Positions 3,052 to 22,470 of a DNA stretch of 24,494 bases are shown here, piece by piece. Each line of letters starts with the position of its first letter. Position 1 is the first letter of the stretch. A program made the translations under genes and the position numbers. This stretch comes from a virus (taxonomy: Duplodnaviria; Heunggongvirae; Uroviricota; Caudoviricetes). The notes under the pieces were generated by a model. That model did not search any database. It saw nothing but the letters and a program-made list of their open reading frames with translations, and had not been told where the DNA came from. Where the stretch lies: the IMG/VR virus record IMGVR_UViG_2778261179_000018, positions 1 to 24,494 of that record; one strand, 5' to 3'.

Positions 3052-3861
3052 ATGAAAATCGAAAAAAGCCGATTCAATTCGGAGGCCGCCCCTCAACCTG
3101 ACGTTAACCAGGGCGTAATTAACGGTAACGACTTTGCCGCTGTTGTCCCTGTTATTTCCGGTCAGATTGGCGGGCGCGAAACCAATATGGCGAGCGCTAG
3201 AGCACTGCATAAAGCGCTGGGCGTGGGTCGAGACTTCACCACCTGGATTAAAGGGCGCATTAGTCAGTATGGTTTTGCCGCAGGTGTAGATTACATCACC
3301 GTTGAAAATTTGAGCTCACCCGTTTCGGGGAGCGCAAAATTTCGCCAGCAAATCGAGCATGATTACCTTCTCTCGCTGAACATGGCTAAAGAAGTGGCAA
3401 TGGTTGAACGCAACGAACAGGGCCGCGCCGTCCGCCGCTATTTCATCCAGTGCGAGGAAGCGTTACAGCTGAGTGCGCCAGAAATCGCCGCGAAGTACCG
3501 CCGTCACCTCAAAGCCCGCATTGGTGCTGCCAACCTCTTTAAGCCGATGTGCGCTGCTCTGGATGCTGCTCGCGCAGAACAGGGGAAAGAGACGCAAGGC
3601 CGCCACTACAGCAACGAAAGCAACATGATCGCCCGCATCGTGCTGGGTGGCATGACCGCTAAGCAGTGGGCGCAGGTGAACGGTATAGACGGCGAACCTC
3701 GCGATAGCATGAGTGCCGGCCAACTGGAGCACCTCAGCTATCTGGAGAGCACCAACATCACGTTGATCGATATGGGTATGCAGTACAACCAGCGCAAAGC
3801 GGAATTAACCCGCCTGTCTCAGCGCTGGCTGGCTAAACGCATGGGGGTTAACGATGAATAA
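3052..3861 (+). CDS. Phage antirepressor (AntA-like N-terminal domain with KilAC-like C-terminal region)
   Basis: Motif ARALHKALGVGRDFTTWIKGRISQYGFAAGVDYI resembles the AntA/AntB antirepressor domain; 269 aa; RBS GGAG upstream. Confidence 0.7.
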   Translation: MKIEKSRFNSEAAPQPDVNQGVINGNDFAAVVPVISGQIGGRETNMASARALHKALGVGRDFTTWIKGRISQYGFAAGVDYITVENLSSPVSGSAKFRQQIEHDYLLSLNMAKEVAMVERNEQGRAVRRYFIQCEEALQLSAPEIAAKYRRHLKARIGAANLFKPMCAALDAARAEQGKETQGRHYSNESNMIARIVLGGMTAKQWAQVNGIDGEPRDSMSAGQLEHLSYLESTNITLIDMGMQYNQRKAELTRLSQRWLAKRMGVNDE

Positions 3862-4057
3862 GCCCACCAGCACGCGGACGCATCTGGCGTCATTTTATGC
3901 CGGAGATCGAGACAGCGGGAGAGCACCCTATCAGCAGAATAATTCGCTGAAAAATGAGGGGTGCGTCAGCGGGCCTAACGCGGGAAATTCTGGCGTGTTC
4001 AAATTGGCCGGATTTTATGGTTGTTTGCTGGTGGTGATCGGTAACGGTGCCGACCGC

Positions 4058-4088
4058 CAAAAGAAAAAGGGCAGGATTCTGCCCTTTG
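4058..4088 (-). terminator. Rho-independent terminator for the minus-strand RHH gene
   Basis: On the minus strand: AAGGGCAG-aatc-CTGCCCTT hairpin followed by TTTCTTTT; preceded by a second hairpin AAAGCCC-gaatca-GGGCTTT (plus coordinates 4091-4112) right after the gene stop. Confidence 0.5.
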
Positions 4089-4116
4089 GTACCAAAGCCC
4101 TGATTCGGGCTTTGAG

Positions 4117-4296
4117 TCATTCCGATTCTTTGGGCTTCTTGCGCTGCCGGCGTTTGATCTCGCCCTTTGCAGCCGTAATCAGAAATCCGGCCGTACTTTC
4201 ACCCTCTTCTTTCAGTTTCTCTATCTCTTCCAAATCATCGAGAGGGAGTCTTACCGAAAGCTGTAGGGAGCGATTGTTCTTCCTACCTGTTGCCAT
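4117..4296 (-). CDS. Small ribbon-helix-helix (CopG/Arc-like) DNA-binding protein, putative regulator
   Basis: Minus-strand ORF (track 4117..4335); start taken at MATGRKNNRSLQLSVRLPLDDLEEIEKL... with RBS AAGAGG 8 nt upstream; beta-strand then helix pattern (LSVRLP / DDLEEIEKLKEEG) typical of RHH. Confidence 0.5.
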   Translation of the reverse strand: MATGRKNNRSLQLSVRLPLDDLEEIEKLKEEGESTAGFLITAAKGEIKRRQRKKPKESE

Positions 4297-4316
4297 TACT
4301 GAAACCTCTTGCCTTA

Positions 4317-4400
4317 GGTGGTGTTCAGTATACACATCAAAATTGATAATAAAACACTTGAAGTGGTGTTCACTAGGTTATACAGTGGTGGTGTTCACCT
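4317..4400. repeat. Three direct iterons GTGGTGTTCA(C/G); third copy contains TGTTCACC
   Basis: GGTGGTGTTCAGT 4317-4329, GTGGTGTTCACT 4363-4374, GTGGTGGTGTTCACC 4386-4400, in the divergent region between the RHH gene and the rightward small-ORF/primase operon. Confidence 0.6.
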
Positions 4401-4717
4401 TATCCACAGCTAAAGCACAGGTAAGGCACAAAACGGCGAAGCCCAGAGGTGCGCCAACACCTTCCGGGCTCCTGACCACCAGCGATAGAATCAGTATCGA
4501 GGTAGCTATGTCAAATCGTATCACACCCCTGACCGGGCGGCATCGCTCAGCCCTAATTTATTCCTCAGGCGCTTTCTGGCGCTCAACCGCCACGACAAAA
4601 AGGCCAGGCCCTGCCGCCTGTCCGTCGAGGCCGCAACCGAACGTGAAGCCCGCCGTATTCTGGCGCCGCACTTCATCCTTTCTCTGGCTGCTCGCCTGCC
4701 GCTGGTGGGGGTGCGTC

Positions 4718-4897
4718 ATGCTTAAAACCTTCCAGATTGACGGGTACGCGGTTAATAAGCGCGGTAACACCGTCGGCATTCACTACACCCTGACCAGCGA
4801 CAGCCCGGATACAGCCAAATCAACCGCGCAACTACTGGCGCAGCAGGGCGGCTATCAGCACGTTCGCATTACCCGCGTTCAGGAGGTAGCAGCATGA
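4718..4897 (+). CDS. Hypothetical small protein (start uncertain)
   Basis: C-terminal part of track ORF 3854..4897; MLKTFQIDGYAVNKRGNTVGIHY... looks protein-like, whereas the upstream part of the same frame is R/W/C/P-rich and overlaps the iterons and the minus-strand RHH gene. Stop overlaps the next start. Confidence 0.4.
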   Translation: MLKTFQIDGYAVNKRGNTVGIHYTLTSDSPDTAKSTAQLLAQQGGYQHVRITRVQEVAA

Positions 4898-9253: not shown

Positions 9254-9536
9254 TTCGCTGTTGTTACGCGGGGAGAGCGTACCTGATGCCTAGACAAGCC
9301 ATCGCCGAATCACCGGGCTGGCATCAACCTACACATGCAACCTGTAAGTACGACTAAAGCCGTAAAATGGTATGGTCGACAATGCGATTTTTTTTGGCGT
9401 GATGTGCTTTACGGCTAGCAAAAAACGATTATTGGTTAACATTATTGTGTTTTATGTTTACATAAAATGGTTTATGATTTACATGTGTTCGAAAGGGATG
9501 ACTCTTTTTGAAGTCATCAATTTTTCCGGAAAAGGT

Positions 9537-10643
9537 ATGAAAGTGTTAGTTGACGATATTGTTGCTCTTATAGAAGCGTCTTTAGATGCAAACTATTCTG
9601 AAGTACGTAGTGTGAGCAATCGAATTGCCAAAGCTATAAGTACCGATAATATGGATGGTGCGAAAAAAATAAAATCTGTTTTACGACGTAAGGGGGTGCC
9701 GTTACGTAGTTCAGGTTACAGCGATAGCCTACCCGTTGATCCAAAGTCAAGAATGCCCTTGGTAGAAGAGCATCAATGGCCTGTCACGCCTCTTTTCTTA
9801 GAGGAGAGCGAACAGGATACCTTTAACACTTTTGTTGAAAGTGTAAAGCAACAAGATAAGCTGATTGCGAATGGACTAGTTGGTAAACTAGGTTTGCTGC
9901 TTTCTGGGCCGCCAGGAACAGGTAAGACATTGATTGCAGGACATATAGCGTCACAACTTAATAGACCACTTTATGTGGTGAGATTAGATTCTGTAATTTC
10001 TTCACTTCTTGGTGATACAGCAAAGAACCTAAGACAGATCTTTGATTTTGTACCGTCAAAAAATGGTGTTTTATTTCTCGACGAAGTTGATGCCGTTGCA
10101 AAAGTAAGAGATGACCGCCATGAAATAGGAGAACTGAAAAGAGTAGTAAATACATTAATTCAAGGTTTAGACTCTCTTGATGATAGTTCTATAGTTATAG
10201 CTGCGACCAATCACTCTGAATTACTTGATCCTGCTATCTGGAGACGTTTTCCTTTTAAAATACGTCTCGATTTCCCTTCCCAGGAATTACGAGAGTTCTT
10301 ATGGAGTCATTTTTTATTCGGTGATAAAGGCCCGATTAAGGAGTTAAAGGCGTTAGGTATTGTTTCAAATGGACTAAGTGGTGCTGATATTGAAACTATA
10401 GCTATTTCGGCGAGGAGACAATCAGTATTATCGAATACACCTTTGAATATTCCTTCTGTATTGTTATCAATTATGGACAGTGAATACAATAATTCAGTGA
10501 TGCCTAACACTAAGGAACCAAGTTTACATACCAAGAAAAGATTGATAAATCTTTTATACGAAGCAAAATCTTTCACACAGACAGAAATTGCCAGCCTATT
10601 AGGTTTGAGTAGGCAGACAATTTCAAGCCATTTAAAGGAGTAA
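9537..10643 (+). CDS. AAA+ ATPase (classic clade) with C-terminal HTH; IetA-like candidate
   Basis: Walker A GPPGTGKT, Walker B VLFLDEVD, sensor-1 AATN, arginine-finger region DPAIWRRF; C-terminal HTH-like TQTEIASLLGLSRQTISSHLKE. Start ambiguous (ATGs at 9483, 9498, 9537); the track start 9372 is rejected. Strongly AT-rich. Confidence 0.8.
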   Translation: MKVLVDDIVALIEASLDANYSEVRSVSNRIAKAISTDNMDGAKKIKSVLRRKGVPLRSSGYSDSLPVDPKSRMPLVEEHQWPVTPLFLEESEQDTFNTFVESVKQQDKLIANGLVGKLGLLLSGPPGTGKTLIAGHIASQLNRPLYVVRLDSVISSLLGDTAKNLRQIFDFVPSKNGVLFLDEVDAVAKVRDDRHEIGELKRVVNTLIQGLDSLDDSSIVIAATNHSELLDPAIWRRFPFKIRLDFPSQELREFLWSHFLFGDKGPIKELKALGIVSNGLSGADIETIAISARRQSVLSNTPLNIPSVLLSIMDSEYNNSVMPNTKEPSLHTKKRLINLLYEAKSFTQTEIASLLGLSRQTISSHLKE

Positions 10644-10647
10644 TGCT

Positions 10648-12876
10648 ATGGCAGATGGTAATAACCGTAAGAAAGTGTTGAACCCTCTACTTTCGTATTT
10701 GGAGGACCCTGCGCCAAAAGCGATTAATGGTGGAGGCAAGAATGCTGACGATATTCAGTGGGCTAGGTTAGATATTCAAAAAGAGACTTTAAGTAAAAGT
10801 CTTAAAAGTATCAGTGAAAACAAATCTATTATAGCTCACGCTGGTAAAATCCATCTGCTAATTAAAATGTTTGATGATTCATTAGCACCTTCATGGACCC
10901 CGACGGATTTATTTGAAACAAATCCTTTTACTAGACTAGTTTCTCCTGCATACAACGGATTTTTAGTTGAAACAAGCAAAGAAAAGATACCTGAAATTAT
11001 CAAGAAGATAAAAACTGCTAGCAATGATAGAATTAAAGTAGATGTGTCACGACTTGAAAGTATAAAGGCATTTGATAGGAGCGCAGTTTTAAGAGGGAAA
11101 AGCTTATCTGACTTTGATTTTAGTAATGATGGAAACCAGTTTAATATTTGGATTTTACCATTTCATGATCCAAATGCGCGCTTTTCGGTTGCTGAGGAGT
11201 TAGAGGATCTTGTTGATGAGGATGTTATTACGTTTGGTGAATCCATTTATGACAATGTTTTTGATGGAGAAAAAAGAACCTCTGGTACTCGTTCCTTCAA
11301 AAGAAAGTTAAAGCAATATCTATCGCATGGACATTTAACATTTACAGCAGTAGTAAAAAATAATAATGACTTCATAAAGTTAATTGGATCCGGAGCTATA
11401 TATAGAATCGAACCGGTTAAGAAGGTGACAACTAGGTCATTGCCTCCTGGTGAAGGAGAAGAGCCTTCACCAAAACTGATTAATAAAGAAACCGCTCCCG
11501 TTGTAGTTATAGTTGATGGTGGTTGTTCATCGAAGTCTTACTTGCCATTGAATGTGATTAACATTAATCCGCTTATTGATAGCTATCATGCAGATTTAAA
11601 ACATGGCAATTGCGTAACTTCATTGGTTTGCCAGGGCGGAGCTTGGAATAATAAATTACACTTACCACAATTAGAGTGTAAATTTGTTAGCGTACAAGCT
11701 ATAAGTAAGAGAGATGTAAGCCCTCAACCAACCACCGAGCAGTTCATTAATTATCTAAGAGTTGTGGCGGAGAAAACTAAAAATGTTTCTTCTGTTTGGA
11801 ATCTATCATTTAATGAGGCTTCGCCATCCGATAGTGTTGATGAAATTAGTAGGTTGGGACATGAAATAAGTCTTCTGGCTCGCGAATTTAATATATTACC
11901 CGTGATTTCAATTGGTAATGTTAACTCTGACAACCCAACTACCTTATGTCCTCCTGCTGATTGTGAAGCGGCATTGACTGTATCAGGTAGAAAAGCATCT
12001 ATTTTAGGTGAGATCTCTTCACATTGTCCAAAAAGTTTGCGTGGACCTGCTCCTGGTGGAATGAAGAAGCCTGAGCTTTCTTGGTTTTCTAAATTGAGGA
12101 TGTTAGGTGGAGATGTTAAGACAGGTACAAGCTTTAGTGCGCCCTTGATATCAAGCATTGCGGCTCACACGTTCAAAAATCTAAAAGAGCCAACTCCAGA
12201 TTTAGTTAAGGCATTACTGATAAACAAAGCTGAAGGTATTGAGCATGATCTTGGCCTAGGTTGGGGGTCTCCATGGAGGAAAGGGAGTTCTATGCCATGG
12301 ATGTGTGAAGATGGAACTGTGACATTAGCTTGGAATTCTAAATTAAAAGCTGGTAGTGCATATTATTGGAATAATATTCCTATCCCTCCTGAAATGATTG
12401 TAGATGGAAAGATTAAAGGTAGTATTATTCTTACTGCCATCTTAAAGCCAGTAGTTTCTGAATTAGCAGGGGATAACTATTTTTCAACAAGATTACAATG
12501 TGCACTACAGCATGTAAATAATGCAGGCAAGGCCAAAAATCTTCTTGGTACTATGAAAGAGTCAACCGAAAAGGAAATTGATTCCAGAAGTGAATTAGCT
12601 AAATGGAGCCCGATTAGACATCATGGTAAAAGCTTTAAAGGGGTTGCCGTTGATAATAACAAAGTAAGGCTTTATGCGCGTATTTTTACAAGAGATCTTT
12701 TCCAATTTAATTATGCGAGTCATCATGAGTTAGATGAACAAGATGTGGCATTTGTTTTGACCTTTAAAAGTCCTAGCGACGATCCATCAATTTACGACTC
12801 AATGAAGCAACAACTTGGTAACAAGGTCAAAGCTGCGATAATAGAACAGGATATTATTCTGGATAGTGATGTTTGA
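10648..12876 (+). CDS. S8 family subtilisin-like serine peptidase; IetS-like candidate
   Basis: 742 aa; RBS AAGGAG 8 nt upstream; 4-bp gap after the ATPase gene. Candidate catalytic motifs in subtilase order: Asp VVVIVDGGCS, His HGNCVTSLV, Ser GTSFSAPLISSIAAH. AT-rich like its partner. Confidence 0.8.
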   Translation: MADGNNRKKVLNPLLSYLEDPAPKAINGGGKNADDIQWARLDIQKETLSKSLKSISENKSIIAHAGKIHLLIKMFDDSLAPSWTPTDLFETNPFTRLVSPAYNGFLVETSKEKIPEIIKKIKTASNDRIKVDVSRLESIKAFDRSAVLRGKSLSDFDFSNDGNQFNIWILPFHDPNARFSVAEELEDLVDEDVITFGESIYDNVFDGEKRTSGTRSFKRKLKQYLSHGHLTFTAVVKNNNDFIKLIGSGAIYRIEPVKKVTTRSLPPGEGEEPSPKLINKETAPVVVIVDGGCSSKSYLPLNVININPLIDSYHADLKHGNCVTSLVCQGGAWNNKLHLPQLECKFVSVQAISKRDVSPQPTTEQFINYLRVVAEKTKNVSSVWNLSFNEASPSDSVDEISRLGHEISLLAREFNILPVISIGNVNSDNPTTLCPPADCEAALTVSGRKASILGEISSHCPKSLRGPAPGGMKKPELSWFSKLRMLGGDVKTGTSFSAPLISSIAAHTFKNLKEPTPDLVKALLINKAEGIEHDLGLGWGSPWRKGSSMPWMCEDGTVTLAWNSKLKAGSAYYWNNIPIPPEMIVDGKIKGSIILTAILKPVVSELAGDNYFSTRLQCALQHVNNAGKAKNLLGTMKESTEKEIDSRSELAKWSPIRHHGKSFKGVAVDNNKVRLYARIFTRDLFQFNYASHHELDEQDVAFVLTFKSPSDDPSIYDSMKQQLGNKVKAAIIEQDIILDSDV

Positions 12877-13352: not shown

Positions 13353-13538
13353 ATGTCCAGACAAAACGTAAACGTAAAACCGGTATTACTCAGTCACGAG
13401 CAGATAAAGGCGCTGAGTGACATTCAGGAGCAGCACCGCAAAACATCCAGTATCGGCGTTGCGCCAACTATCCATGAGATTGCACGCGGTCTGATGGATA
13501 AAGCGCTGGCGTCTCTCTCCGACGGAGTGAAAGTATGA
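13353..13538 (+). CDS. Small phage protein preceding the tape measure gene
   Basis: 61 aa; RBS GGGGGTGG upstream; ATGA overlap with the downstream gene. Confidence 0.5.
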   Translation: MSRQNVNVKPVLLSHEQIKALSDIQEQHRKTSSIGVAPTIHEIARGLMDKALASLSDGVKV

Positions 13539-15535
13539 ATGCTGAAACTCTGAAGGACTTTTTAATTAGCCTGGGCTTCAAAGTAGATGACGCCGGCGCC
13601 AGAAAATTTGATGCCATCGTTACCGGCGCGACACTCAAGGCGATCGAGCTCGGCACCAAAGTAGAGCTGGCCGCTGCGTCTGTGGTGGCCTTTACCGCGA
13701 AAGTCGCCAGCGGTCTCGATAACTTGTACTGGGCCTCTCAGCGCACTGGCGCAACGGTGCAGGGCATCAAGCAGATCGGCTTTGCCGTCAGCCAGATGGG
13801 CGGCAGTGTGGATGCCGCCCGCGGCTCTCTCGAAAGCCTGGCTCAGTTCATCCGTACCAGCTCCGGAGCCGAGGGTTTCCTGAATCGCCTTGGCGTTCAG
13901 ACCCGCGATGCCAGCGGAAACATGCGGGACATGACGACGATCTTTACCGGCGTCGGCCAGCGTCTCAGCAGCATGCCGTACTATCGCGCTAATCAGTACG
14001 CACAGATGCTCGGCATGGATGAAAACACGCTGCTGGCTATGCGTCGAGGCATTGGCGAGTACATGGGCCAGTATAACGCCATGAAAAAGGCTATCGGGTT
14101 TAATCCTGATCAGGCCGCCGCGGCATCTAACCGCTTTATGACCTCGTTGCGGTCGTTCGGCGAAATGGCCGGCATGGCGCGGGACAAAATCGGCTCTAAC
14201 CTCGCTGGTGGTCTAGCCGGTGCCATTGATAACCTTCGCCGCCAGATCCTTGATAACTTCCCGAAAATAGAGCGCACCATTAACGCAGTGGTGAAGGGTA
14301 TTCTTTGGATGGGGGAGGCCGTCGGACGGGTGGTCTATCGTCTGATACAGGCCGCGGGTGATATCCGGGACTGGTGGAAAGGGCTTGATGAAGACTCCAG
14401 GAAACTCATCGGCACGCTGGGTGGAATGCTGGTGGCCTGGCGATTGCTGAATGCCGCTATGCTCGCCTCTCCGATTACCTGGGTTCTGGCGCTTGCTGGT
14501 GCGCTTCTGCTGCTCTATGACGATTACAAGACGTGGAAAGAAGGCGGTAAAAGCCTCATTGACTGGGATAAGTGGGAGCCGGCGATAAACTTTGCGCTGA
14601 CTGCCATTGAAAAACTATGGACTGGTGTGAAGCGTCTTAAAGACGAGTTGATTAAACTTTTCGGTATCGACCCTAAAACATGGTCGATTAAGTTCGAATT
14701 CGACAGTCTGAAGAAGCAGTTCAATGAGCTGAGCAAGATGCTGGATACCATAGGCAAGCTTCTCAATGCGATTGATGAAGGTCGCTGGTCAGACGCGGCA
14801 GCTTACGCCAGACAACTGCTGAATCAGGGCGGCGAGCCGACACCATCAAACGCGGTGACAGACAGCGCCAATAGCGCTGCGGACTGGATTCAGAATAAAA
14901 CCGGGTTTGACCCCCGCAGTATTGGTCAAGCCGTTACTGGCTGGTTTGGTGGTGAAGCTACTCAATACGGGCAGTCTGTTAAACGACCTCAGGCCTCTAA
15001 AGCTGGCGCTCAGCTGCTGGGTTGGATGGCTCCGATGATGGGTAAACTGGAGGCGTTGTATAACCTCCCTGCGGGCCTGCTCCGTAGTGTTGCTCTCGCT
15101 GAGTCAAACGGCAATCAGTTTGCTGTGTCTGGCGCTGGCGCACAGGGAATGTTTCAGTTTATGCCGGGTACTGCCCGCGATATGGGCCTGCGCGGCAACG
15201 ATGTGTTTAACCCGATGAAAGCGGCGGAAGCGGCGGCGCGGTATCTCTCGATGCTCCTGCAGAAGAACGGCGGCGATCTGAATAAAACTCTGGCCTCCTA
15301 TAACTGGGGCATCGGTAATGTGCAGAAGTACGGCATGGCGCTGATGCCCGGGGAGACCCGTCAATATATCCCGAAAGTGCTCAGCAATATGCCGGGCAGC
15401 GGGGCAACGCTGAACCAGGAAACCAATATCCATATTCACGGCGTCAATAATCCGCGAGAGGCGGCCAATCTGGTGGTTGAAAGGCAGAACACTGTAAACA
15501 ATCGGGCAACCCAGGATCTGGGGAGGAGTAACTGA
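13535..15535 (+). CDS. Phage tail tape-measure-like protein with C-terminal lytic transglycosylase (SLT) domain
   Basis: 666 aa; coiled-coil-like N-terminal region, hydrophobic segment LIGTLGGMLVAWRLLNAAMLASPITWVLALAGALLLL, and SLT motif block AESNGNQFAVSGAGAQGMFQFMPGTARDMG...YNWG. Confidence 0.7.
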   Translation: MNAETLKDFLISLGFKVDDAGARKFDAIVTGATLKAIELGTKVELAAASVVAFTAKVASGLDNLYWASQRTGATVQGIKQIGFAVSQMGGSVDAARGSLESLAQFIRTSSGAEGFLNRLGVQTRDASGNMRDMTTIFTGVGQRLSSMPYYRANQYAQMLGMDENTLLAMRRGIGEYMGQYNAMKKAIGFNPDQAAAASNRFMTSLRSFGEMAGMARDKIGSNLAGGLAGAIDNLRRQILDNFPKIERTINAVVKGILWMGEAVGRVVYRLIQAAGDIRDWWKGLDEDSRKLIGTLGGMLVAWRLLNAAMLASPITWVLALAGALLLLYDDYKTWKEGGKSLIDWDKWEPAINFALTAIEKLWTGVKRLKDELIKLFGIDPKTWSIKFEFDSLKKQFNELSKMLDTIGKLLNAIDEGRWSDAAAYARQLLNQGGEPTPSNAVTDSANSAADWIQNKTGFDPRSIGQAVTGWFGGEATQYGQSVKRPQASKAGAQLLGWMAPMMGKLEALYNLPAGLLRSVALAESNGNQFAVSGAGAQGMFQFMPGTARDMGLRGNDVFNPMKAAEAAARYLSMLLQKNGGDLNKTLASYNWGIGNVQKYGMALMPGETRQYIPKVLSNMPGSGATLNQETNIHIHGVNNPREAANLVVERQNTVNNRATQDLGRSN

Positions 15536-16122
15536 TGGATATTCTTTCAACGCTGTTTCAGCAAAATAGCCGCAGAATCGGGTTAATGGTGCCAAGCGTT
15601 GTTGTTTCTGAAAAACACACTGACATGCTGGAGATTACCGAGCATCCCGTTGAACGCCCCACATCTGCTGGGGCTGGTTTTATTGCTGATCATGCGTATC
15701 GCCGACCCTCTGAAGTGGTAATGGAAATTGGCTTTGCTGGTGGTGGTTCACTGCTGGATTTCTACGACACCCGAAATATTGGACTGTCGACGCCGCTCAA
15801 CAGCATGGGCCCGAAAGAGGTTTATGCGGAGCTGCTGAATATGCAGCAAGGTAAGCAGTTGCTCGACGTCACCACGGGCAAGCGGTTGTACAAAAATATG
15901 CTGATCCGCTCTCTGGAGGTTACCACTGACCGAACTACTGAAAATGTATTATCGGCCACAGTGACACTTCGCGAAGTCATTATCACTCAGACAAAAAGCA
16001 TCAAGGTGGCTGATAAAGCCGATATGAAATATGGCGTAAACACCTCAGCCGTAATTAACACCGGAACTAAAACGCCAGTACCGAAAAATGAGTCCATTCT
16101 TTCCAGCGTGTTTGGAGGTTAA
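15535..16122 (+). CDS. Phage tail/baseplate structural protein (unassigned)
   Basis: 195 aa; TGATG-coupled to the upstream gene; RBS GGAG; position within the tail operon. Confidence 0.55.
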   Translation: MDILSTLFQQNSRRIGLMVPSVVVSEKHTDMLEITEHPVERPTSAGAGFIADHAYRRPSEVVMEIGFAGGGSLLDFYDTRNIGLSTPLNSMGPKEVYAELLNMQQGKQLLDVTTGKRLYKNMLIRSLEVTTDRTTENVLSATVTLREVIITQTKSIKVADKADMKYGVNTSAVINTGTKTPVPKNESILSSVFGG

Positions 16123-16428
16123 ATGTCCGTATCGGAAATTCCGTTAGCGCCCGATAGTCAGAGTTTTAATATCACCCTAGCTGGCGTTGATTATCAAATG
16201 CGCGTGGTCTGGCGCGGGGTATGTTGGTTCCTCGACCTGATGGACAGTACCGGTACGCTGATGATTGGCGGTATTCCGCTGATCACCGGCACTAATCTGC
16301 TGGCGCAGTACCATTATCTCGGCCTCGGGTTCTCGCTTTATGTGGTCTGTGATGACCCGGCCAGCGAAAACCCAACGCAGTTTGATCTTGGCATTAAAAG
16401 CCACCTGTACGCGAAAACTGAGGATTAA
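16123..16428 (+). CDS. Phage tail/baseplate protein (small, unassigned)
   Basis: 101 aa; RBS GGAGG; immediately follows the previous stop. Confidence 0.5.
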   Translation: MSVSEIPLAPDSQSFNITLAGVDYQMRVVWRGVCWFLDLMDSTGTLMIGGIPLITGTNLLAQYHYLGLGFSLYVVCDDPASENPTQFDLGIKSHLYAKTED

Positions 16429-16430
16429 CG

Positions 16431-17513
16431 ATGCCAAGAAACTGGAACCGACATTTTGAACTACAGCTCATCGACGATAACGGCGAGGGTATCAGCCTTA
16501 GCGACTTTAAAGTTGCCTTTAGCGTAGAGCGAAACGATAACCGATGGCCAGCTATGGCGCTGGTCAAAATCTATAACCTTGCCCCCGAAACCCAGAACCG
16601 TATCATGCGCCGTGAATACAGCAAGATAACCCTGATAGCGGGTTATGACGGGCTGGATAGTGCTTCCTCTGATACCGTAAGCGCCAGCGAGGTAGGGAAG
16701 GTGCGCTACGTAACAAATGACACCATAAATAGCCCTGATGGCTCAAATTACGGTGTCATTTTCAGCGGTGATATTGCTTTCACTGTGGAAGGCAAAGACA
16801 ACATTACCGATCGGTACGTCCGTATACAGGCATTTGACGGCGACAAGGCCTTTATGGAAGCGCAGATCAGCACCTCGCTGGCCGCCGGCTATACGCTGAG
16901 CGATGAGTACAATTTGCTCATGAAGCACCTTGAACCGTTCGGTATCCGTAAGGGGGTTGAGCCGGTTTTCCCTGGTACAGTCTATCCGCGAGCTGCGTCA
17001 TACCACGGCCTTGTGAACAACTATCTTTCCCGACTGGCTGATGACCTTCGTGCGACATGGCAATTCAGCTTTGGAAAGGTTGACTTCATTCAGCAGGATG
17101 TGGCGAAACACCGTGCAATCGTCCTGAACGCTGATACCGGGCTGGTGGGCATGCCGCAGCAGACCATTGGCGGAGGGGTGAATGTTACGTGTCTTATTAA
17201 TTCCTTCATTCAGTTACACGGGCTTATTCAGTTGGATCAGGCGTCAGTGTATCGTGCACAGTTGAGCAATGAGCAGGTTTTACAGGCTGGTGGTATTGCG
17301 CCGGAACAGGAAATTAACGGCAACCTTGTCACAAGTGGTCTGGCGCAGAGAGAGAATCCGGCGAGTGTTGCGACAGACGGTGTTTATATCGTCCGCTACC
17401 TCTCATATCGAGGCGATACGCGCGGGCAGGACTGGTACATGGATTTAGCTTGCGAAGCCCGAGGAAATGCTGACGTTCCCTCATCGTCTTACTTACTCAA
17501 ACAGGATTCTTAA
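16431..17513 (+). CDS. Putative baseplate hub protein (gp27 / late-control-D-like)
   Basis: 360 aa; RBS GAGGA; lies between the tape measure and the spike gene, the usual hub position. Assignment is by context and size, not by a recognised motif. Confidence 0.5.
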   Translation: MPRNWNRHFELQLIDDNGEGISLSDFKVAFSVERNDNRWPAMALVKIYNLAPETQNRIMRREYSKITLIAGYDGLDSASSDTVSASEVGKVRYVTNDTINSPDGSNYGVIFSGDIAFTVEGKDNITDRYVRIQAFDGDKAFMEAQISTSLAAGYTLSDEYNLLMKHLEPFGIRKGVEPVFPGTVYPRAASYHGLVNNYLSRLADDLRATWQFSFGKVDFIQQDVAKHRAIVLNADTGLVGMPQQTIGGGVNVTCLINSFIQLHGLIQLDQASVYRAQLSNEQVLQAGGIAPEQEINGNLVTSGLAQRENPASVATDGVYIVRYLSYRGDTRGQDWYMDLACEARGNADVPSSSYLLKQDS

Positions 17514-17863
17514 TGAAAAAAGCAATTCTCATTATTGGCATGGTTGCTTCAATGGCGTGCAGCGCGAAAGCGCCCTTAACGCATCGGTATGATTGCGGAG
17601 CCTTTCGGTTTGAGATAATCGAAAACTCCATGTCGAAGATAAACGGCGAGTATGTAACTTCACAAAAAATAGCGTCGCTGGGGGAGCGTGGAGCCAAAAT
17701 AGATATGACCCTCACATCTGCTAAAGACGGTAATTTCTACGGCTTCGAATATGTTCATCCTGACGGCAGCAATAAGCGTTGGCTAAATGTTGAGTTAATC
17801 CGCAGTAGCATGGATCAGCCGCGGATTATTGGTACGTTTATGTGCAAACGTGTTGAGAGTTGA
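17513..17863 (+). CDS. Small secreted protein or lipoprotein within the tail module
   Basis: 116 aa; N-terminal signal-like MKKAILIIGMVASMACSAK with a Cys after the hydrophobic core; TAATG overlap with the upstream gene. Confidence 0.5.
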   Translation: MKKAILIIGMVASMACSAKAPLTHRYDCGAFRFEIIENSMSKINGEYVTSQKIASLGERGAKIDMTLTSAKDGNFYGFEYVHPDGSNKRWLNVELIRSSMDQPRIIGTFMCKRVES

Positions 17864-17872
17864 GGGGGAAGC

Positions 17873-18616
17873 ATGGCCACAGCAAGACCAATTGAAGATC
17901 GCGAGGTGTATGACTCCATCCTGAAGGGGGCGAAACAATCAATTCGTGTGTCAATGCCGGGGGTTATTAAGTCTTTTGACCCGGAAACCGTTACATGCGT
18001 TGTGGAAGTCTCGATATATATCCCTAAGCCAGAGTCAGCGGAAGGCAAATCCATTGACCGGCTGGCGCAGGACAATGTTTTCTACCCGCTTATTTTAGAT
18101 GCGCCGGTTATTTTTCCCCGCGGTGGCGGCTGTACGCTAACGTTTCCCATTAGTGCCGGCGATGAGTGCCTGGTGATATTCGCCGATCGCTGTATCGACT
18201 TCTGGTGGCAGAATGGCGGGGTGCAAAATGGCTCAAGGGGGAGAATGCACGATTACTCGGATGCGTTTGTTATCCCCGGCCCGCAGTCGCAGGCGAAGAA
18301 AATCAGCGGCATCAGCACTACGGCCGCGCAGCTGCGTACCGACGACGGCACCGCATTCATTGAGGTGTCCGCCGGCGGGGATATCACTGCCACCACCGCC
18401 GGCAACGCGACTATTAACGCCCCGGAAATCATTCTCAATGGCAACGTAACGATTAACGGCAACCTGTCGCAGGGCATGGGCGATAGCGGCGGCACAGCGA
18501 CGATGCACGGCCCTGTTACCGTAACCAACGATGTGACAGCAGGTGGTAAGAGCCTGATGACGCACACGCATGGAGGGGTTGAGACTGGCAGTGGGAATAC
18601 AGGAGAGCCGCAGTAA
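17873..18616 (+). CDS. Baseplate central spike protein (gpV / gp5 / gp138-like)
   Basis: 247 aa; RBS GGGGGAAG; Gly/Thr-rich beta-helix-like C-terminus (ITATTAGNATINAPEIILNGNVTINGN) ending in an HxH motif (MTHTHGG), as at the metal-binding tip of phage spikes. Confidence 0.6.
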   Translation: MATARPIEDREVYDSILKGAKQSIRVSMPGVIKSFDPETVTCVVEVSIYIPKPESAEGKSIDRLAQDNVFYPLILDAPVIFPRGGGCTLTFPISAGDECLVIFADRCIDFWWQNGGVQNGSRGRMHDYSDAFVIPGPQSQAKKISGISTTAAQLRTDDGTAFIEVSAGGDITATTAGNATINAPEIILNGNVTINGNLSQGMGDSGGTATMHGPVTVTNDVTAGGKSLMTHTHGGVETGSGNTGEPQ

Positions 18617-19154: not shown

Positions 19155-19613
19155 ATGGCAGTTACAACCCTAAATAGCGTGGCGGACTATCTGCTGTGCT
19201 TTGCTCAGGAGCACGGGGATGTTATGACGCCGCTGAAACTGCAAAAAATGGTGTTTTACGCTGATGCCTGGTATATGGCTCTGAACGATGGCGAAGAGTT
19301 GATTGCTGATCGGTTTGAGGCGTGGGTACACGGCCCGGTAGCGAGAGATTTGTATATCAGGTTCGCCGATTACAAATGGCAGCCGATCACCCGTGAAATA
19401 CCATGCCCGGATCTCCCTAAGGGTGTTTCTGAACATCTGGACGAAATTTATAATGTATTCGGCGGATTCTCGGCTTATGAGCTGGAGCAGATGACGCATC
19501 AGGAAAAACCCTGGCTGATAGCTCGCGGTGATATTCCATCAGATGCGCCTTGCCGGAATGACATCGACAAAGGCGTAACCGCTGAATTCTACCGCGGCAT
19601 GATGGATGCCTGA
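19155..19613 (+). CDS. Panacea-domain (DUF4065, SocA/GepA-like) protein; putative antitoxin
   Basis: 152 aa; RBS AGGAGA 8 nt upstream; hallmark LKLQKMVFYADAW ... GPV ... Y of the DUF4065 family. Confidence 0.75.
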   Translation: MAVTTLNSVADYLLCFAQEHGDVMTPLKLQKMVFYADAWYMALNDGEELIADRFEAWVHGPVARDLYIRFADYKWQPITREIPCPDLPKGVSEHLDEIYNVFGGFSAYELEQMTHQEKPWLIARGDIPSDAPCRNDIDKGVTAEFYRGMMDA

Positions 19614-20053: not shown

Positions 20054-20158
20054 CCAACCCATTGTTTATTCCGAAAACCGCCAATGGCGTGCACCGGGCT
20101 CATGTAATAGCCCCCGTTTAAACCGGACACTTCACCAGTAAGACATAGGCATAGAGCT

Positions 20159-20563
20159 ATGTTTAAGGAGTGTCCTGTGCAAAGAATCGAAGTGATCACT
20201 GGCGAGCAAAAGCGCCGCCGTTATACTCCCGAAGAGAAAGCCCGTTTTGTAGCGCTCGCCATGCAGCCCGGCTACACCGTCTCACTCGTTGCCCGGCAAT
20301 ATGGCATCACTCCCAGTCTTCTTTTTAAGTGGAAACGACTCATGAACGAGGGTGGCAAGTCTGCGATCGCCGCAGGCGACGAGGTGGTCAGCGTCTCCGA
20401 GCTCAAAGCGCTGGAGAAAAAAGTCAAACAGCTTGAACAGATGCTGGGACGCAAAACGATGGAAGCCGAAATCCTTCGCGACGCGCTTGAGATAGCCCAG
20501 GCAAAAAAGTTGATATCGCGCATGCCATTGCTGCCACCGGACGATATCCCCTCATCCGAATAG
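20159..20563 (+). CDS. IS3-family transposase OrfA (HTH DNA-binding subunit)
   Basis: EQKRRRYTPEEKARFV...GYTVSLVARQYGITPSLLFKWKR and a leucine-zipper-like C-terminus; slippery AAAAAAG at 20503-20509 for a programmed -1 frameshift. Confidence 0.85.
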   Translation: MFKECPVQRIEVITGEQKRRRYTPEEKARFVALAMQPGYTVSLVARQYGITPSLLFKWKRLMNEGGKSAIAAGDEVVSVSELKALEKKVKQLEQMLGRKTMEAEILRDALEIAQAKKLISRMPLLPPDDIPSSE

Positions 20564-20568
20564 CAGAA

Positions 20569-21384
20569 GTGCTCTGTGTATCGCGTTCGAATCTGTATGA
20601 CCGGTTACTGGATAAAAGCCAGCACCGGTCAGCCCGCTACAGCAAAGACGATGACGCCCGACTGTTACCGCTTATCCGCCAGATATGCAGCGAGCGGGCA
20701 ACAAACGGCTATCGTCGCGTGACTGCGCACCTCAATCGTGCGCTGAAGGAACATAACTGGCGAGTTAACCCCAAACGTATTTATCGGATCATGCAGGCGA
20801 ATAACCTGTTACTGGCAAAATCTGGCCATAAAAAGCCAGAACGCTGCCATACCGGCAGCGTCGTGACACTTAAGTCGGATACGCGCTGGTGCTCAGATGG
20901 CTTCGAAATCCGCTGCTGGAATCGGGAAGTCGTGCGGGTGGTGTTCAGCCTTGACTGCTGTGATCGTGAAGCCATCAGTTGGTCGGCCACAGCAGGCGGT
21001 ATAAACAGCGTTATGGTGCAGGATCTGCTGACAGAGAGTGTAGAAAAGCGCTTTGGAAATACGCTTTACCTGCCACACGCCGTTGAGTGGCTGACCGATA
21101 ACGGCAGTTGCTACGTAGCGGACGCGACAAGGACGTTCGCTGCTTCACTCGGGTTCATCGTGTGTACGACGCCAGTGCGTAGCCCGGAGAGCAATGGGAT
21201 GGCTGAATCGTTCGTGAAAACGTTCAAGCGTGACTACGTGTATGTGAATGACCTGCCGGATGCGGTGACCGTAATGGAAAAACTGACAGAATGGATGGAA
21301 GACTATAATAACTGGCATCCCCATAAAGGACTGAAAATGCAGTCACCGAGAGAATACAGAAGCTCATTACTAGCTATAAATTAA
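20569..21384 (+). CDS. IS3-family transposase OrfB (DDE catalytic domain); probably expressed as an OrfAB fusion
   Basis: ORF-track coordinates; the reading frame stays open upstream to the slippery site in the -1 frame; integrase-core-like block WLTDNGSCYVA and conserved C-terminal region. Confidence 0.8.
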   Translation: MLCVSRSNLYDRLLDKSQHRSARYSKDDDARLLPLIRQICSERATNGYRRVTAHLNRALKEHNWRVNPKRIYRIMQANNLLLAKSGHKKPERCHTGSVVTLKSDTRWCSDGFEIRCWNREVVRVVFSLDCCDREAISWSATAGGINSVMVQDLLTESVEKRFGNTLYLPHAVEWLTDNGSCYVADATRTFAASLGFIVCTTPVRSPESNGMAESFVKTFKRDYVYVNDLPDAVTVMEKLTEWMEDYNNWHPHKGLKMQSPREYRSSLLAIN

Positions 21385-21662
21385 CCGTGTCCGATTTAGC
21401 GGGGGCAACTCCAGCTCAATCTGTATATGGACAAAACAACGTTAAACACGGTTAGAGGTTCCGACGAAATCCGTCGGTAGCTGTGAAGATGATGGAAAGA
21501 GCCATCATGAGGAAAATCAACAAAGTCCAGCTTTGGACTGTAAGCCGGATTTGGCTTGCGTAAGGCTAGTGACTCAAAGTCGCGAGGTTAACCGAGTATC
21601 TCTGAGCGAGTCGGATAGCCTACCCTCTTTAAGAGGGTCAGTAGATACGGGGCTGGACTAAG

Positions 21663-21858
21663 TTATCCACATAATGGAAATCATAAGGCAACTCACTATC
21701 TCCGCATTTCATGCGGCCTAAGGGCATAAAATCGCAGTTTTCATTGAAAATGGATAACTCCGCATTTTTTTGAAGTTTTAATTCCGCACTCAAACGCAGA
21801 CAGGCAGCGGCCCCGGAGGAGACTTTTAGTCAGAATTATTCCGCACGCAAAATGCGGA
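21663..21858. repeat. ORF-free region with a DnaA-box-like 9-mer and repeated TCCGCA motifs; candidate origin or operator
   Basis: TTATCCACA at 21663-21671; reverse-orientation TGGATAA at 21751-21757; four direct copies of (A/T)(C/T)TCCGCA at about 21698, 21756, 21780 and 21838; small inverted repeats CCGCAT-ttc-ATGCGG and TCCGCA-cgcaaaa-TGCGGA; AT-rich stretches between. Confidence 0.4.
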
Positions 21859-22278
21859 GAAATGATTTTGAACAAAAATTAAACAGTGACTGATTTCAGG
21901 TAAGCGTATGGCCAGAAAAAATAGTTTTCAGAAGGCCTACGTCGGTATCGTTCTGGACATGGCTTTAGCCCTGCCAATGTATGCAAATGTTAACGTTTTT
22001 CCGTGTCTGGCTGGTGGGCGAATCTTTACATTTCTTGGTGCTAGAGGGCTGACTTAGTTTCATCAGGGTAATTGCGACAAATTGCGACGTTCTGTCCTGA
22101 TACGAACGGAGCTGAATAGCGAAAAATATAGACGTTTTCCCGGTTGTTCACCCGAGACTCTACGAGCAGAATGTTTACAAATGTTGGTGTTCAGACGTTT
22201 CTCAAATGCCGGCCCACTGATAGGATCAAATAGTAACGTTTTGGCGAAATTCTCCCTTTCCAGAAACAGGTGGCTAAC

Positions 22279-22470
22279 ATGCTTAAATCTGATGTCATTG
22301 AGTCGGCAATTGCTGAGATGGTCACTAAGCAGGGATTCGCATTGAGCGCCGCCGATATGCTGGAGCTACGTTGTAGAGTTGCCGGTACGCTCGCAGCGAA
22401 GGAGCGCCACCGCCGGCGGATGACGGCCCCAGCCTACCAGTGGAAGAAGCCGGATAATCCGCGTCGCTAA
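22279..22470 (+). CDS. Hypothetical small protein
   Basis: Start at MLKSDV with RBS AGGTGG 5 nt upstream (track start 22270 rejected); 63 aa; 3' end overlaps the convergent minus-strand gene by 4 bp. Confidence 0.45.
   Translation: MLKSDVIESAIAEMVTKQGFALSAADMLELRCRVAGTLAAKERHRRRMTAPAYQWKKPDNPRR

Follow-up and report, generated by a model that had tools for sequence, protein, structure and literature searches.

In phages P1 and P7 the immI order is a c4 antisense RNA, icd and ant; a structured regulatory RNA precedes the small Icd-type gene in the same transcript, and translation of that gene is tied to downstream transcription. Another described arrangement is that of the Rickettsia palindromic elements, which are palindromic elements lying in frame inside genes. 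For P4, the parts of PMC10111431 covered here report that the Bro-network gene eta holds the CI immunity RNA together with its target seqA, and that translation of eta prevents premature termination (PMC10111431, citing Forti 1999 and Sabbattini 1995). The same parts of that paper divide Gram-negative phage-inducible chromosomal islands (PICIs) into four zones (Integration, Bro, Replication and Late) with extreme domain swapping in the Bro zone, and call those with captured prophage late genes 'elongated' (PMC10111431). IsrK of the Salmonella prophage Gifsy-1, as presented in the sections of PMC4825925 considered here, is both a short terminated RNA and part of a longer mRNA, and controls downstream expression. 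We compared with these systems a hairpin-dense stretch at positions 21440-21660 of a 24,494-nt Caudoviricetes sequence (IMG/VR record IMGVR_UViG_2778261179_000018, the whole of which we call the window), which a sequence-only reading had put forward as a possible structured RNA.

The stretch is probably part of a detached piece, about 295 nt long (20055-20102 plus 21414-21660), of a PICI leader built of hairpin cassettes; the native mechanism of this leader would be like that of P4 eta/kil, and the window copy would be a relic of it. Homologous copies, given here as numbered loci (L), were found by pattern scans of viral and metagenome collections and by BLAST of E. coli genomes. Copies 88.8-100% identical to the main piece (21414-21660) lie behind the same toxin-antitoxin (TA) gene pair in L088-L098, L006, L007, L105, L110 and L112. 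The same cassettes occur within the antA-icd regions of PICIs in L111, L114, L115, L118 and L119, and partly in L107, L108, L117 and L123-L133. There the native site is a stretch of ~900 nt that runs from an antA/BRO-type (antirepressor-like) gene to icd-like and primase genes in small integrase-bearing islands. In E. coli ABW_S38 the PGAP order is int, DUF6387, a helix-turn-helix (HTH) regulator, antA, a gap on the + strand (with YlcI on the - strand), Icd-like, two small genes and primase, and the order in FDAARGOS_1283 is similar, with HicB on the - strand. This gene order around the native copies is that of Gram-negative PICIs. Among 5426 complete E. coli genomes the module core was present in one and partial copies in four more, always within PICIs.

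The native region is modular, with hairpin cassettes present in some elements and absent from others. Hairpins 2-6 of the window correspond to an optional 126-nt block between GAAGAT and A[AG]CC[AT]ACCCTC. The motif GGAAAATCAACAA hardly varies in two alignments of the module (A4 and A5), and L119, L126 and L133 carry it twice. The module also recombines apart from its flanks: the TA genes of L088 and L097 show 0-1 differences from the window over 899 nt, and their modules differ from it at 10-15 of 206 positions, in clusters. Module divergence set against synonymous divergence of the TA genes was rejected as a test of constraint, since recombination confounds it (TA genes identical, module 5-7% different). 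The locus also records recombination at the level of cassettes, with different module versions between identical TA flanks and with pieces in common with antirepressor genes. One such piece, 54 nt long, lies at 6249-6302 of L114 and at the equivalent position of L111, and is ~89% identical to the N-terminal Rha-type domain of KilAC/Rha antirepressor genes; its counterpart genes occur in >570 E. coli genomes and share its reading frame (RLPQIEV.ERINNL). This likeness is evidence that leaders and genuine antirepressor genes exchange cassettes.

In at least 14 distinct PICI copies one frame of the native region is open over 243-560 codons, and the other two frames are open over 4-46 codons. The long frame typically starts at a GTG that overlaps the upstream stop codon (GTG within GTGA; VILHNSIRVAQNL...), with a GGAGG 6 nt before the GTG that is supplied by the 'VGG' codons of the antA C-terminus. 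It is usually in phase with the Icd-like C-terminus; L115 has instead a TGA overlapping the icd ATG. Indels among the copies are all multiples of three, namely 6, 21, 27, 48, 54 and 102 nt, the 126-nt block and a 30-nt duplication in L115. The conceptual long protein is represented by 515 database clusters of 180-470 aa, many of which (304-470 aa) carry the NCBI name 'host cell division inhibitor Icd-like protein'.

The peptide itself is not kept. Neither a third-position excess nor a synonymous surplus, as purifying selection on the amino acids of the long frame would leave, was found in the copies compared. Variable sites by codon position numbered 28/28/32 in the N-terminal part and 23/19/27 in the module, where 14 variant codons were synonymous and 53 non-synonymous; between L111 and L114 the counts were 16/4/14, with 9 synonymous and 18 non-synonymous changes. 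The frame passes antisense across genuine - strand genes, and against Pfam, PHROG and NCBIfam it gave no match except the Icd domain.

Several of the hairpins, by contrast, are evolutionarily maintained structures. We built a colinear alignment of 11 distinct copies in which the local hairpins were specified explicitly; the controls were the same hairpins with their 3' partners slid by 1-3 columns, and shuffles. Stem cells were paired in 88-91% of cases, vs 29-40% in the slid controls, and the covariation score was 0.165-0.18, vs 0.02-0.04. Pairs changed on both sides numbered 6-8, vs 0-2 in the slid controls, a number reached in 2-4 of 500 shuffles; structural covariation across homologous loci, one of the checks proposed along with the first description of the stretch, is therefore present. 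RNAalifold agreed on the local hairpins and gave long-range pairs without covariation. The homologues fold with z-scores of -2 to -7, vs about 0 in coding controls, and stem and unpaired positions are equally variable (41% vs 44%).

The individual hairpins contribute unequally to this signal. Hairpin 2 has both-side changes in four of its seven pairs and 92% of its cells paired, and its stem is wholly different in L111, L115, L119 and L107; hairpin 2 comes with three unrelated stem sequences. Compensatory changes convert hairpin 3 from GUCCA/UGGAC to GUACA/UGUAC in L115 and to AUCCA/UGGAU in L107, and hairpin 5 from GUGAC/GUCAC to GUAAC/GUUAC (L005 and the second copy of the L115 duplication). 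An upstream PICI hairpin goes from UCGCG/CGCGA to UAACG/CGUUA as its peptide goes from R.T.R to N.S.L. In hairpin 4, 94% of cells are paired and the changes are one-sided only (G.U to A-U and U.G to U-A). The terminal hairpin gives no covariation signal because it is nearly invariant. The L115 duplication (3586-3645) is a 30-nt tandem repeat of one hairpin cassette (AGGGTAGTACCTCAAAGTCACGAGGTTAAC / AGGGTAGTAACTCATAGTTACCAGGTTAAC), the second copy having a perfected GUAAC/GUUAC stem.

These results bear on the plainest coding explanation, in which the stretch would be decayed coding sequence from a gene for a long Icd-like (Eta-like) protein, with incidental hairpins. Such a gene would account for the coding sequence (CDS) annotation in many genomes, for the in-frame indels and for the Shine-Dalgarno sequence with its overlapping start; the L114/L111 neighbouring piece, 89% identical to Rha/KilAC genes in the same frame, and the three synonymous changes that break the hairpin 2 stem between L111 and L114 also speak for it. 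We nevertheless consider it highly doubtful, since third positions show no excess of change, synonymous and non-synonymous changes stand in a roughly neutral ratio, the frame has no Pfam, PHROG or NCBIfam match beyond the Icd domain and lies antisense to genuine - strand genes, the compensatory double changes swap amino acids non-conservatively and keep the pairs, and the fold z-scores lie far below those of coding controls. The sequence-only reading had set degraded coding sequence against a structured RNA; the stretch is indeed a degraded piece of translated sequence, but it is the hairpins and not the amino acids that are conserved.

The closest described counterpart of the native leader is P4 eta/kil. 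Checked directly, P4 eta is open over 199 codons from an ATG that overlaps the ORF88 stop, contains C4, isrK and c4-a1b1 (Rfam), and has a 5' part that folds with z = -4.35. The C-terminal Kil part of eta matches the NCBIfam phage_ICD_like model (NF033153) and the PHROGs that PICI icd and the end of the PICI long frame also match. Because of the start overlap, the structured 5' part and the shared Icd/Kil models, we take the PICI long frame plus icd to be an eta/kil organisation. Gene order is shared as well, with an alpA homologue (plus a Bro gene in PICIs) followed by the open reading frame (ORF), further genes and primase. In the PICI copies, as in P4, the start overlaps the upstream stop and a short Kil/Icd-like gene is nested in the frame at its 3' end, and the 5' part is a junk-like translation over strongly structured RNA (z of -4.35 in P4 and of -2 to -7 in PICIs). 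The two differ in that P4 has C4- and isrK/c4-a1b1-family RNAs, whereas the PICI leaders and the window have variable small hairpin cassettes instead. The window copy differs further in having no start codon, no intact frame and no kil/icd end, while its structured RNA (z = -5.9) is shared.

Other systems are less close. P1/P7 immI likewise has an Icd-type gene with structured RNA ahead of it in one transcript, but the antirepressor is downstream in P1 and upstream here, and no C4 or a1b1 match was found here. The Rickettsia palindromic elements share the presence or absence of hairpin cassettes in frame within an ORF, but the cassettes here are not dispersed through genomes. IsrK differs in that the window stretch has no isrK match, and the two isoforms described in the covered sections of PMC4825925 are a trait of IsrK. 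The PICI 'Bro zone' genes, in the passages of PMC10111431 covered, belong to the same zone and class of element and show the same extreme mosaicism, and the leader has a piece in common with Rha/KilAC genes; that treatment is one of protein domains, with C4/isrK matches in some PICIs. Hairpin cassettes, upkeep of a frame without amino-acid constraint and an eta-like frame in antA-type PICIs are not described in those passages (PMC10111431). The native region, which keeps its frame and hairpins but not its peptide and has no C4/CI RNA, thus appears undescribed in the parts of the literature covered.

By analogy with P4 eta/kil, ribosomes coupled in from the upstream gene would melt the native hairpins, and this melting would let transcription run on into icd and primase. 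Transcripts without translation would fold and then be terminated or processed. A frame that is kept, amino acids that drift freely and hairpins that covary are what is expected if the passage of ribosomes is itself regulated, as for P4 eta.

Several observations weigh against this account. Between the hairpin-bearing part and the 5' region of P4 eta no sequence similarity was detectable, and the hairpin-bearing part gave no C4/isrK/c4-a1b1 match at E up to 5-10. The P4 analogy is therefore one of position, coupling and nesting, together with the shared Icd/Kil domain; BLASTP of P4 against the PICI long frame gave E = 0.11, confined to the Icd/Kil end. Some hairpins are imperfect: hairpin 2 of L114 is broken by the three synonymous changes, hairpin 3 of L119 has an A.C mismatch, 5 of the 11 copies lack one pair of hairpin 4, and hairpin 1 of L093 and hairpin 7 of L098 are broken. 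Many Klebsiella and Enterobacteriaceae genomes retain the window-type copy, and this could mean function and not recency. The folding strand is not settled by the 19-21 G.U cells vs 8-15 A.C cells, and several homologues fold equally well or better on the - strand. A general preference for + strand folding, true for the window, was accordingly rejected for the homologues as a set.

The strand matters for a second explanation, one compatible with a translated PICI leader. The hairpins would form a minus-strand array of one-directional intrinsic terminators or insulators that act against leftward antisense transcription, whether from - strand genes on the right or, in PICIs, from hicB/ylcI, and that let + strand transcription pass. 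No site in 21414-21660 matched a + strand terminator pattern. The most conserved motif in the module reads UUGUUGAUUUUCC on the - strand, where it comes directly after hairpin 3, and hairpin 3 with UUGUUGAUUU is flagged as terminator-like on that strand in the window (a pattern match only). The PICI terminal hairpin, with its UUGGUUAUCU tail, and another cassette are also terminator-like on that strand, and L115 has six such sites vs 1.2 expected. Many cassettes have CAAAAC(A) just before them on the + strand, which is a U-tract on the - strand, and the homologues that fold equally or better on the - strand fit the same idea. We regard this array as rather unlikely, since a U-rich tail follows only one of the six window hairpins (the tail of the window's terminal hairpin is not U-rich), the excess of G.U over A.C cells leans to the + strand, and the upkeep of the + strand frame is left unexplained.

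In the window itself, all five stem-loops named by the sequence-only reading were located, together with a sixth, small hairpin at 21569-21588 (Table 1). The RNA fold of 21440-21660 reaches -86.5 kcal/mol on the + strand (z = -5.9; none of 200 dinucleotide shuffles as good) and -63.7 kcal/mol on the - strand (z = -3.3). With DNA energy parameters the strands score nearly alike (z = -5.2 and -4.8), and coding DNA nearby gave control values between about -0.8 and +1. The minimum free energy (MFE) fold is multibranched and is closed by GCUGGACU, the sole long-range complement of at least 8 nt within 21414-21700. A single big multibranch RNA (21524-21531 with 21652-21659) was rejected, as the closing helix is limited to window-type copies and absent from L006-type and PICI copies; the conserved feature is the series of local hairpins and not the MFE multibranch fold.

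The absence of a credible ORF, also claimed at first, is true for the window, where the sole ORF with a start codon is a TTG ORF of 42 aa. A caveat is that a startless frame is open there over 71 codons (21446-21658), and this is the frame kept open for hundreds of codons in homologous loci. A small ORF of 26 aa in frame 1 (MKMMERAIMRKINKVQLWTVSRIWLA) was set aside: its ATG is lost in a Klebsiella plasmid copy, and the frame is 8 codons long in L115 and L119.

Table 1. Features of the window at and around the hairpin stretch
Feature	Positions	Strand	Description
Panacea/SocA-type antitoxin gene	19155-19613	+	Pfam PF13274 SocA_Panacea, E = 6.8e-18
TA partner gene, 145 aa	19616-20053	+	Family of 88 database clusters; leader fragment starts right past its stop codon
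Leader fragment, 5' piece	20055-20102	+	AACCCATTGTTTATTCCGAAAACCGCCAATGGCGT...; aligns to the PICI leaders of L114 and L111 from AACCCATTG; severed from the rest by the insertion sequence
IS3-family insertion sequence, 1311 bp	20103-21413	+	TG...CA ends; orfA 20159-20563, orfB 20569-21384
Leader fragment, main piece	21414-21660	+	Holds the hairpin chain first noticed
Frame-breaking lesion	21450-21458	+	GGTT-AGAGG vs GGTTCAGAGG in PICI copies; 1-nt deletion makes a TAG stop in the upstream frame
Hairpin 1	21461-21477	+	CCGACG-AAATC-CGTCGG; CGACG-AATAA-CGTCG or one mismatch in PICI copies
Hairpin 2	21489-21508	+	AUGAUGG-AAAGAG-CCAUCAU; first cassette of the optional 126-nt (42-codon) block
Conserved motif GGAAAATCAACAA	21511-21523	+	Most conserved motif in the module; reads UUGUUGAUUUUCC on the - strand, directly after hairpin 3
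Hairpin 3	21524-21539	+	AGUCCA-GCUU-UGGACU
Hairpin 4	21540-21559	+	GUAAGCCG-GAUU-UGGCUUGC; first described as (GT)AAGCC/GGCTT(GC)
Hairpin 5	21569-21588	+	Either GUGAC/GUCGC (21569-21583) or a CUC/GAG-type helix (21571-21588), which exclude each other
Terminal hairpin	21622-21638	+	ACCCUC-UUUAA-GAGGGU; most widespread cassette, in every PICI copy examined
GCUGGACU	21652-21659	+	8-nt perfect complement of the hairpin 3 5' arm (21524-21531); closes the MFE multibranch fold

Searches for known RNA families placed the stretch in none. At gathering score, Rfam on the whole window found only the int-alpA RNA, elsewhere in the window, and permissive thresholds likewise gave no family for the stretch, in keeping with the first statement that no known class of non-coding RNA (ncRNA) could be assigned. 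On eight related loci, too, Rfam found nothing but int-alpA RNA, elsewhere. Rfam on 21300-22400 at E up to 10 gave zero C4, isrK or c4-a1b1 matches, and these models had none in seven homologous loci or, at E up to 5, in L115 3200-4200. As a positive control, P4 scored 74.9 bits with C4, 60.8 bits with isrK and 44.1 bits with c4-a1b1. ARAGORN found zero tRNAs and zero tmRNAs over the whole window, and Rfam likewise none at the stretch. A reverse transcriptase, which had been suggested as something to look for nearby, did not turn up: a Pfam scan of the 20 larger window ORFs gave no such domain. A retron msr-msd is not indicated either, with no reverse transcriptase among those 20 ORFs and none seen adjoining the homologous copies. 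Dispersal of the REP/ERIC/MITE kind was not found, the module being single-copy in the window.

The absence from Rfam, the exceptional + strand fold and the covariation of the hairpins would also suit an independent structured ncRNA gene, for example a trans-acting immunity or decoy RNA like P4 CI that pairs with the leaders of resident or incoming PICIs. The complementarity of 8-10 nt between the hairpin 3 arm and 21652-21659 is reminiscent of P4 seqB/seqC, and many genomes have retained the copy behind the TA pair. Such a gene is quite unlikely. No promoter-like site or + strand terminator of its own was found for the window fragment, whose ends are recombination junctions and not transcript-like boundaries. 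The long-range pairing is not conserved beyond window-type copies, the covariation derives from copies inside a translated frame, and recent single substitutions strike stems uncompensated in L093 and L098. The leader of the window's own PICI (3862-4500) has an unrelated sequence, which leaves no obvious target. The suggestion of a possible structured RNA therefore holds as far as the hairpins, which evolution has kept in the 11-copy alignment, but not as an independent gene, since in homologues they lie inside the long frame. We conclude that the window stretch is not a free-standing new ncRNA gene or class.

Under the PICI-leader reading, the window copy is most likely a non-autonomous relic, because it is startless, carries a frame-breaking 1-nt deletion, is not followed by icd and is interrupted by an insertion sequence (IS). 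The 1-nt gap is seen in pairwise alignments to both L115 and L117. In the window a TAA precedes the open frame, which contains no ATG, GTG or TTG before 21533, and no Icd-like or primase gene was found downstream of 21660 in the window. Other copies are broken differently: the L006-type has a TGA in place of TCA and a different 1-nt deletion, and in L105 a TAG interrupts the frame further on. The window fragment starts at a recombination joint with microhomology (CAACCCATTG), directly past the stop of the TA partner gene, and its one specific trait, the 8-nt complement at 21652-21659, is not conserved elsewhere. Comparison with the homologous loci thus establishes what the fragment is, that its frame is lost and that its hairpins are conserved. 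Any residual role would at most be in cis, as a folded 3' untranslated RNA for the TA transcript or as a - strand terminator-like signal at hairpin 3.

The fragment is interrupted by the IS3-family element, which was identified from Pfam HTH_Tnp_1 and rve matches, inverted repeats and exact junctions against the IS-free L094, and which has a 5-bp target duplication, GCTCA, at 20098-20102 and 21414-21418. In IS-free copies such as L094, the counterpart of 20055-20102 is contiguous with that of 21414 onward, and the unit is therefore about 20055-20102 plus 21414-21660 with the IS inside. Among the homologous loci the element was seen in L095 and L113 only, which makes the insertion recent. Many genomes of Enterobacteriaceae carry the TA pair and module in the IS-free arrangement, and Klebsiella michiganensis is among the species from which the exact partner protein is named. 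A reading of the module as a 3' element tied to the Panacea TA pair was rejected, the module being missing from 80 reference-genome loci of the toxin family and from the Yersinia copies.

Beyond the fragment, a different conserved non-coding block (21651-21885) is common to Yersinia phage YP3 and 'Elizabethkingia' phage EKP1. Its TTATCCA motifs, which resemble DnaA boxes, are paired (21661-21669 and 21751-21759), and its (A/T)TCCGCA repeats, of which there are four to five, have a spacing of ~57-58 nt, some of them as dyads. The block could be a candidate origin or packaging (cos/pac) site. Downstream of it, an ORF of 49 aa (21908-22057) is the truncated N-terminus of a 200-aa HTH protein that is intact in phage YP3 (L001 1869-2471), and is probably a pseudogene; the YP3 gene downstream of the block had weak HTH matches only.

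The position of the hairpin array a few hundred nt upstream of iteron- or DnaA-box-like sequences in both contexts (window 4320-4410 and 21651-21885) would fit a DNA-level function, in which the palindromes form hairpins in single-stranded DNA or cruciforms that serve as replication-priming or packaging signals, or act as operators for dimeric proteins. Both strands are exceptional with DNA parameters (z = -5.2 and -4.8), and many stems are perfect palindromes. The palindrome sequences all differ, which argues against a common binding protein; one-sided changes of the G.U type are tolerated, the maintained frame is unexplained, and there is no evidence of a single-stranded stage of replication or transfer for these elements. 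We consider a DNA-level function very improbable.

For annotation, such stretches should not be listed as novel ncRNA genes, nor should long 'Icd-like protein' calls at PICI loci be read as ordinary proteins. If the translated-leader reading is true, entry into replication is governed in many enterobacterial PICIs by a structured leader that is translated and lacks the known C4/CI RNAs, and this would offer a testable handle on how satellites are silenced and switched on. The native PICI region merits experiments, and the window copy alone is of modest interest. A bolder proposal is that in antA/BRO-icd PICIs a previously undescribed translated 'hairpin-cassette' leader replaces the P4 CI/C4 RNA, that selection acts on its frame and its hairpins but not on its peptide, that its cassettes are shuffled for specificity and that orphan pieces are kept as trans decoy or immunity RNAs or as insulators against competing satellites; we see this as a long shot.

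Decayed or altered forms of the module were noted at other loci. In L003 (3700-4250, Klebsiella variicola plasmid pBM374-1) and in L004, a degraded 145-aa toxin-like gene is followed by a degraded, internally deleted module. In L003 the downstream glycosyl hydrolase family 28 CDS is annotated from 4010, across this relic; that start is probably placed too far upstream, and a signal-peptide-like one lies at about 4248. In the viral contig L005, a run of ~15 G (1436-1452) stands in place of hairpins 1-2 and may be an assembly artefact. L107 (1-1200) holds a decayed remnant of a PICI leader, with the terminal hairpin cassette twice, near tail-fibre genes and directly after the host fis gene, a known PICI integration site.

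The window carries a PICI of its own, whose layout (int, int-alpA RNA, antA, icd, primase and then tail genes) fits an elongated PICI as described in the covered parts of PMC10111431. The int-alpA RNA (Rfam RF02996, 53.3 bits) lies at 1263-1329, right after a P4-type integrase gene (1-1254), and is also found in L117. From the antA stop across the antA-icd region, this PICI has its own long frame (3809-4897, 362 codons stop to stop), which is unrelated in sequence to the hairpin stretch and has a junk-like translation; it is out of phase with the Icd domain and continues into the next small gene. The Icd-like domain at 4570-4722 (NF033153, E = 9e-19; region 4508-4725) has no start codon of its own and lies in a frame that differs from that of the ATG at 4508, the counterpart of the icd start in other PICIs. 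The icd gene of the window PICI is either frameshifted or a pseudogene. Upstream of icd and primase, 4318-4415 holds three TGGTGTTCA(C) repeats resembling the type-1 repeat of P4 ori/crr (TGTTCACC) and a TTATCCACA DnaA box, and is likely to be the replication origin of the PICI, to judge from these repeats. Between primase/SSB and the captured tail genes (9372-12876) are an AAA+ ATPase of 423 aa with a C-terminal HTH and then a subtilase (S8) of 742 aa, which may be a defence-type cargo pair. The tail module (13535-18616) comprises a tape-measure protein with an SLT domain, a Dit-like protein, a gp18-like plug, a hub and a gpV-like spike, and its layout is also found in L105 and L006.

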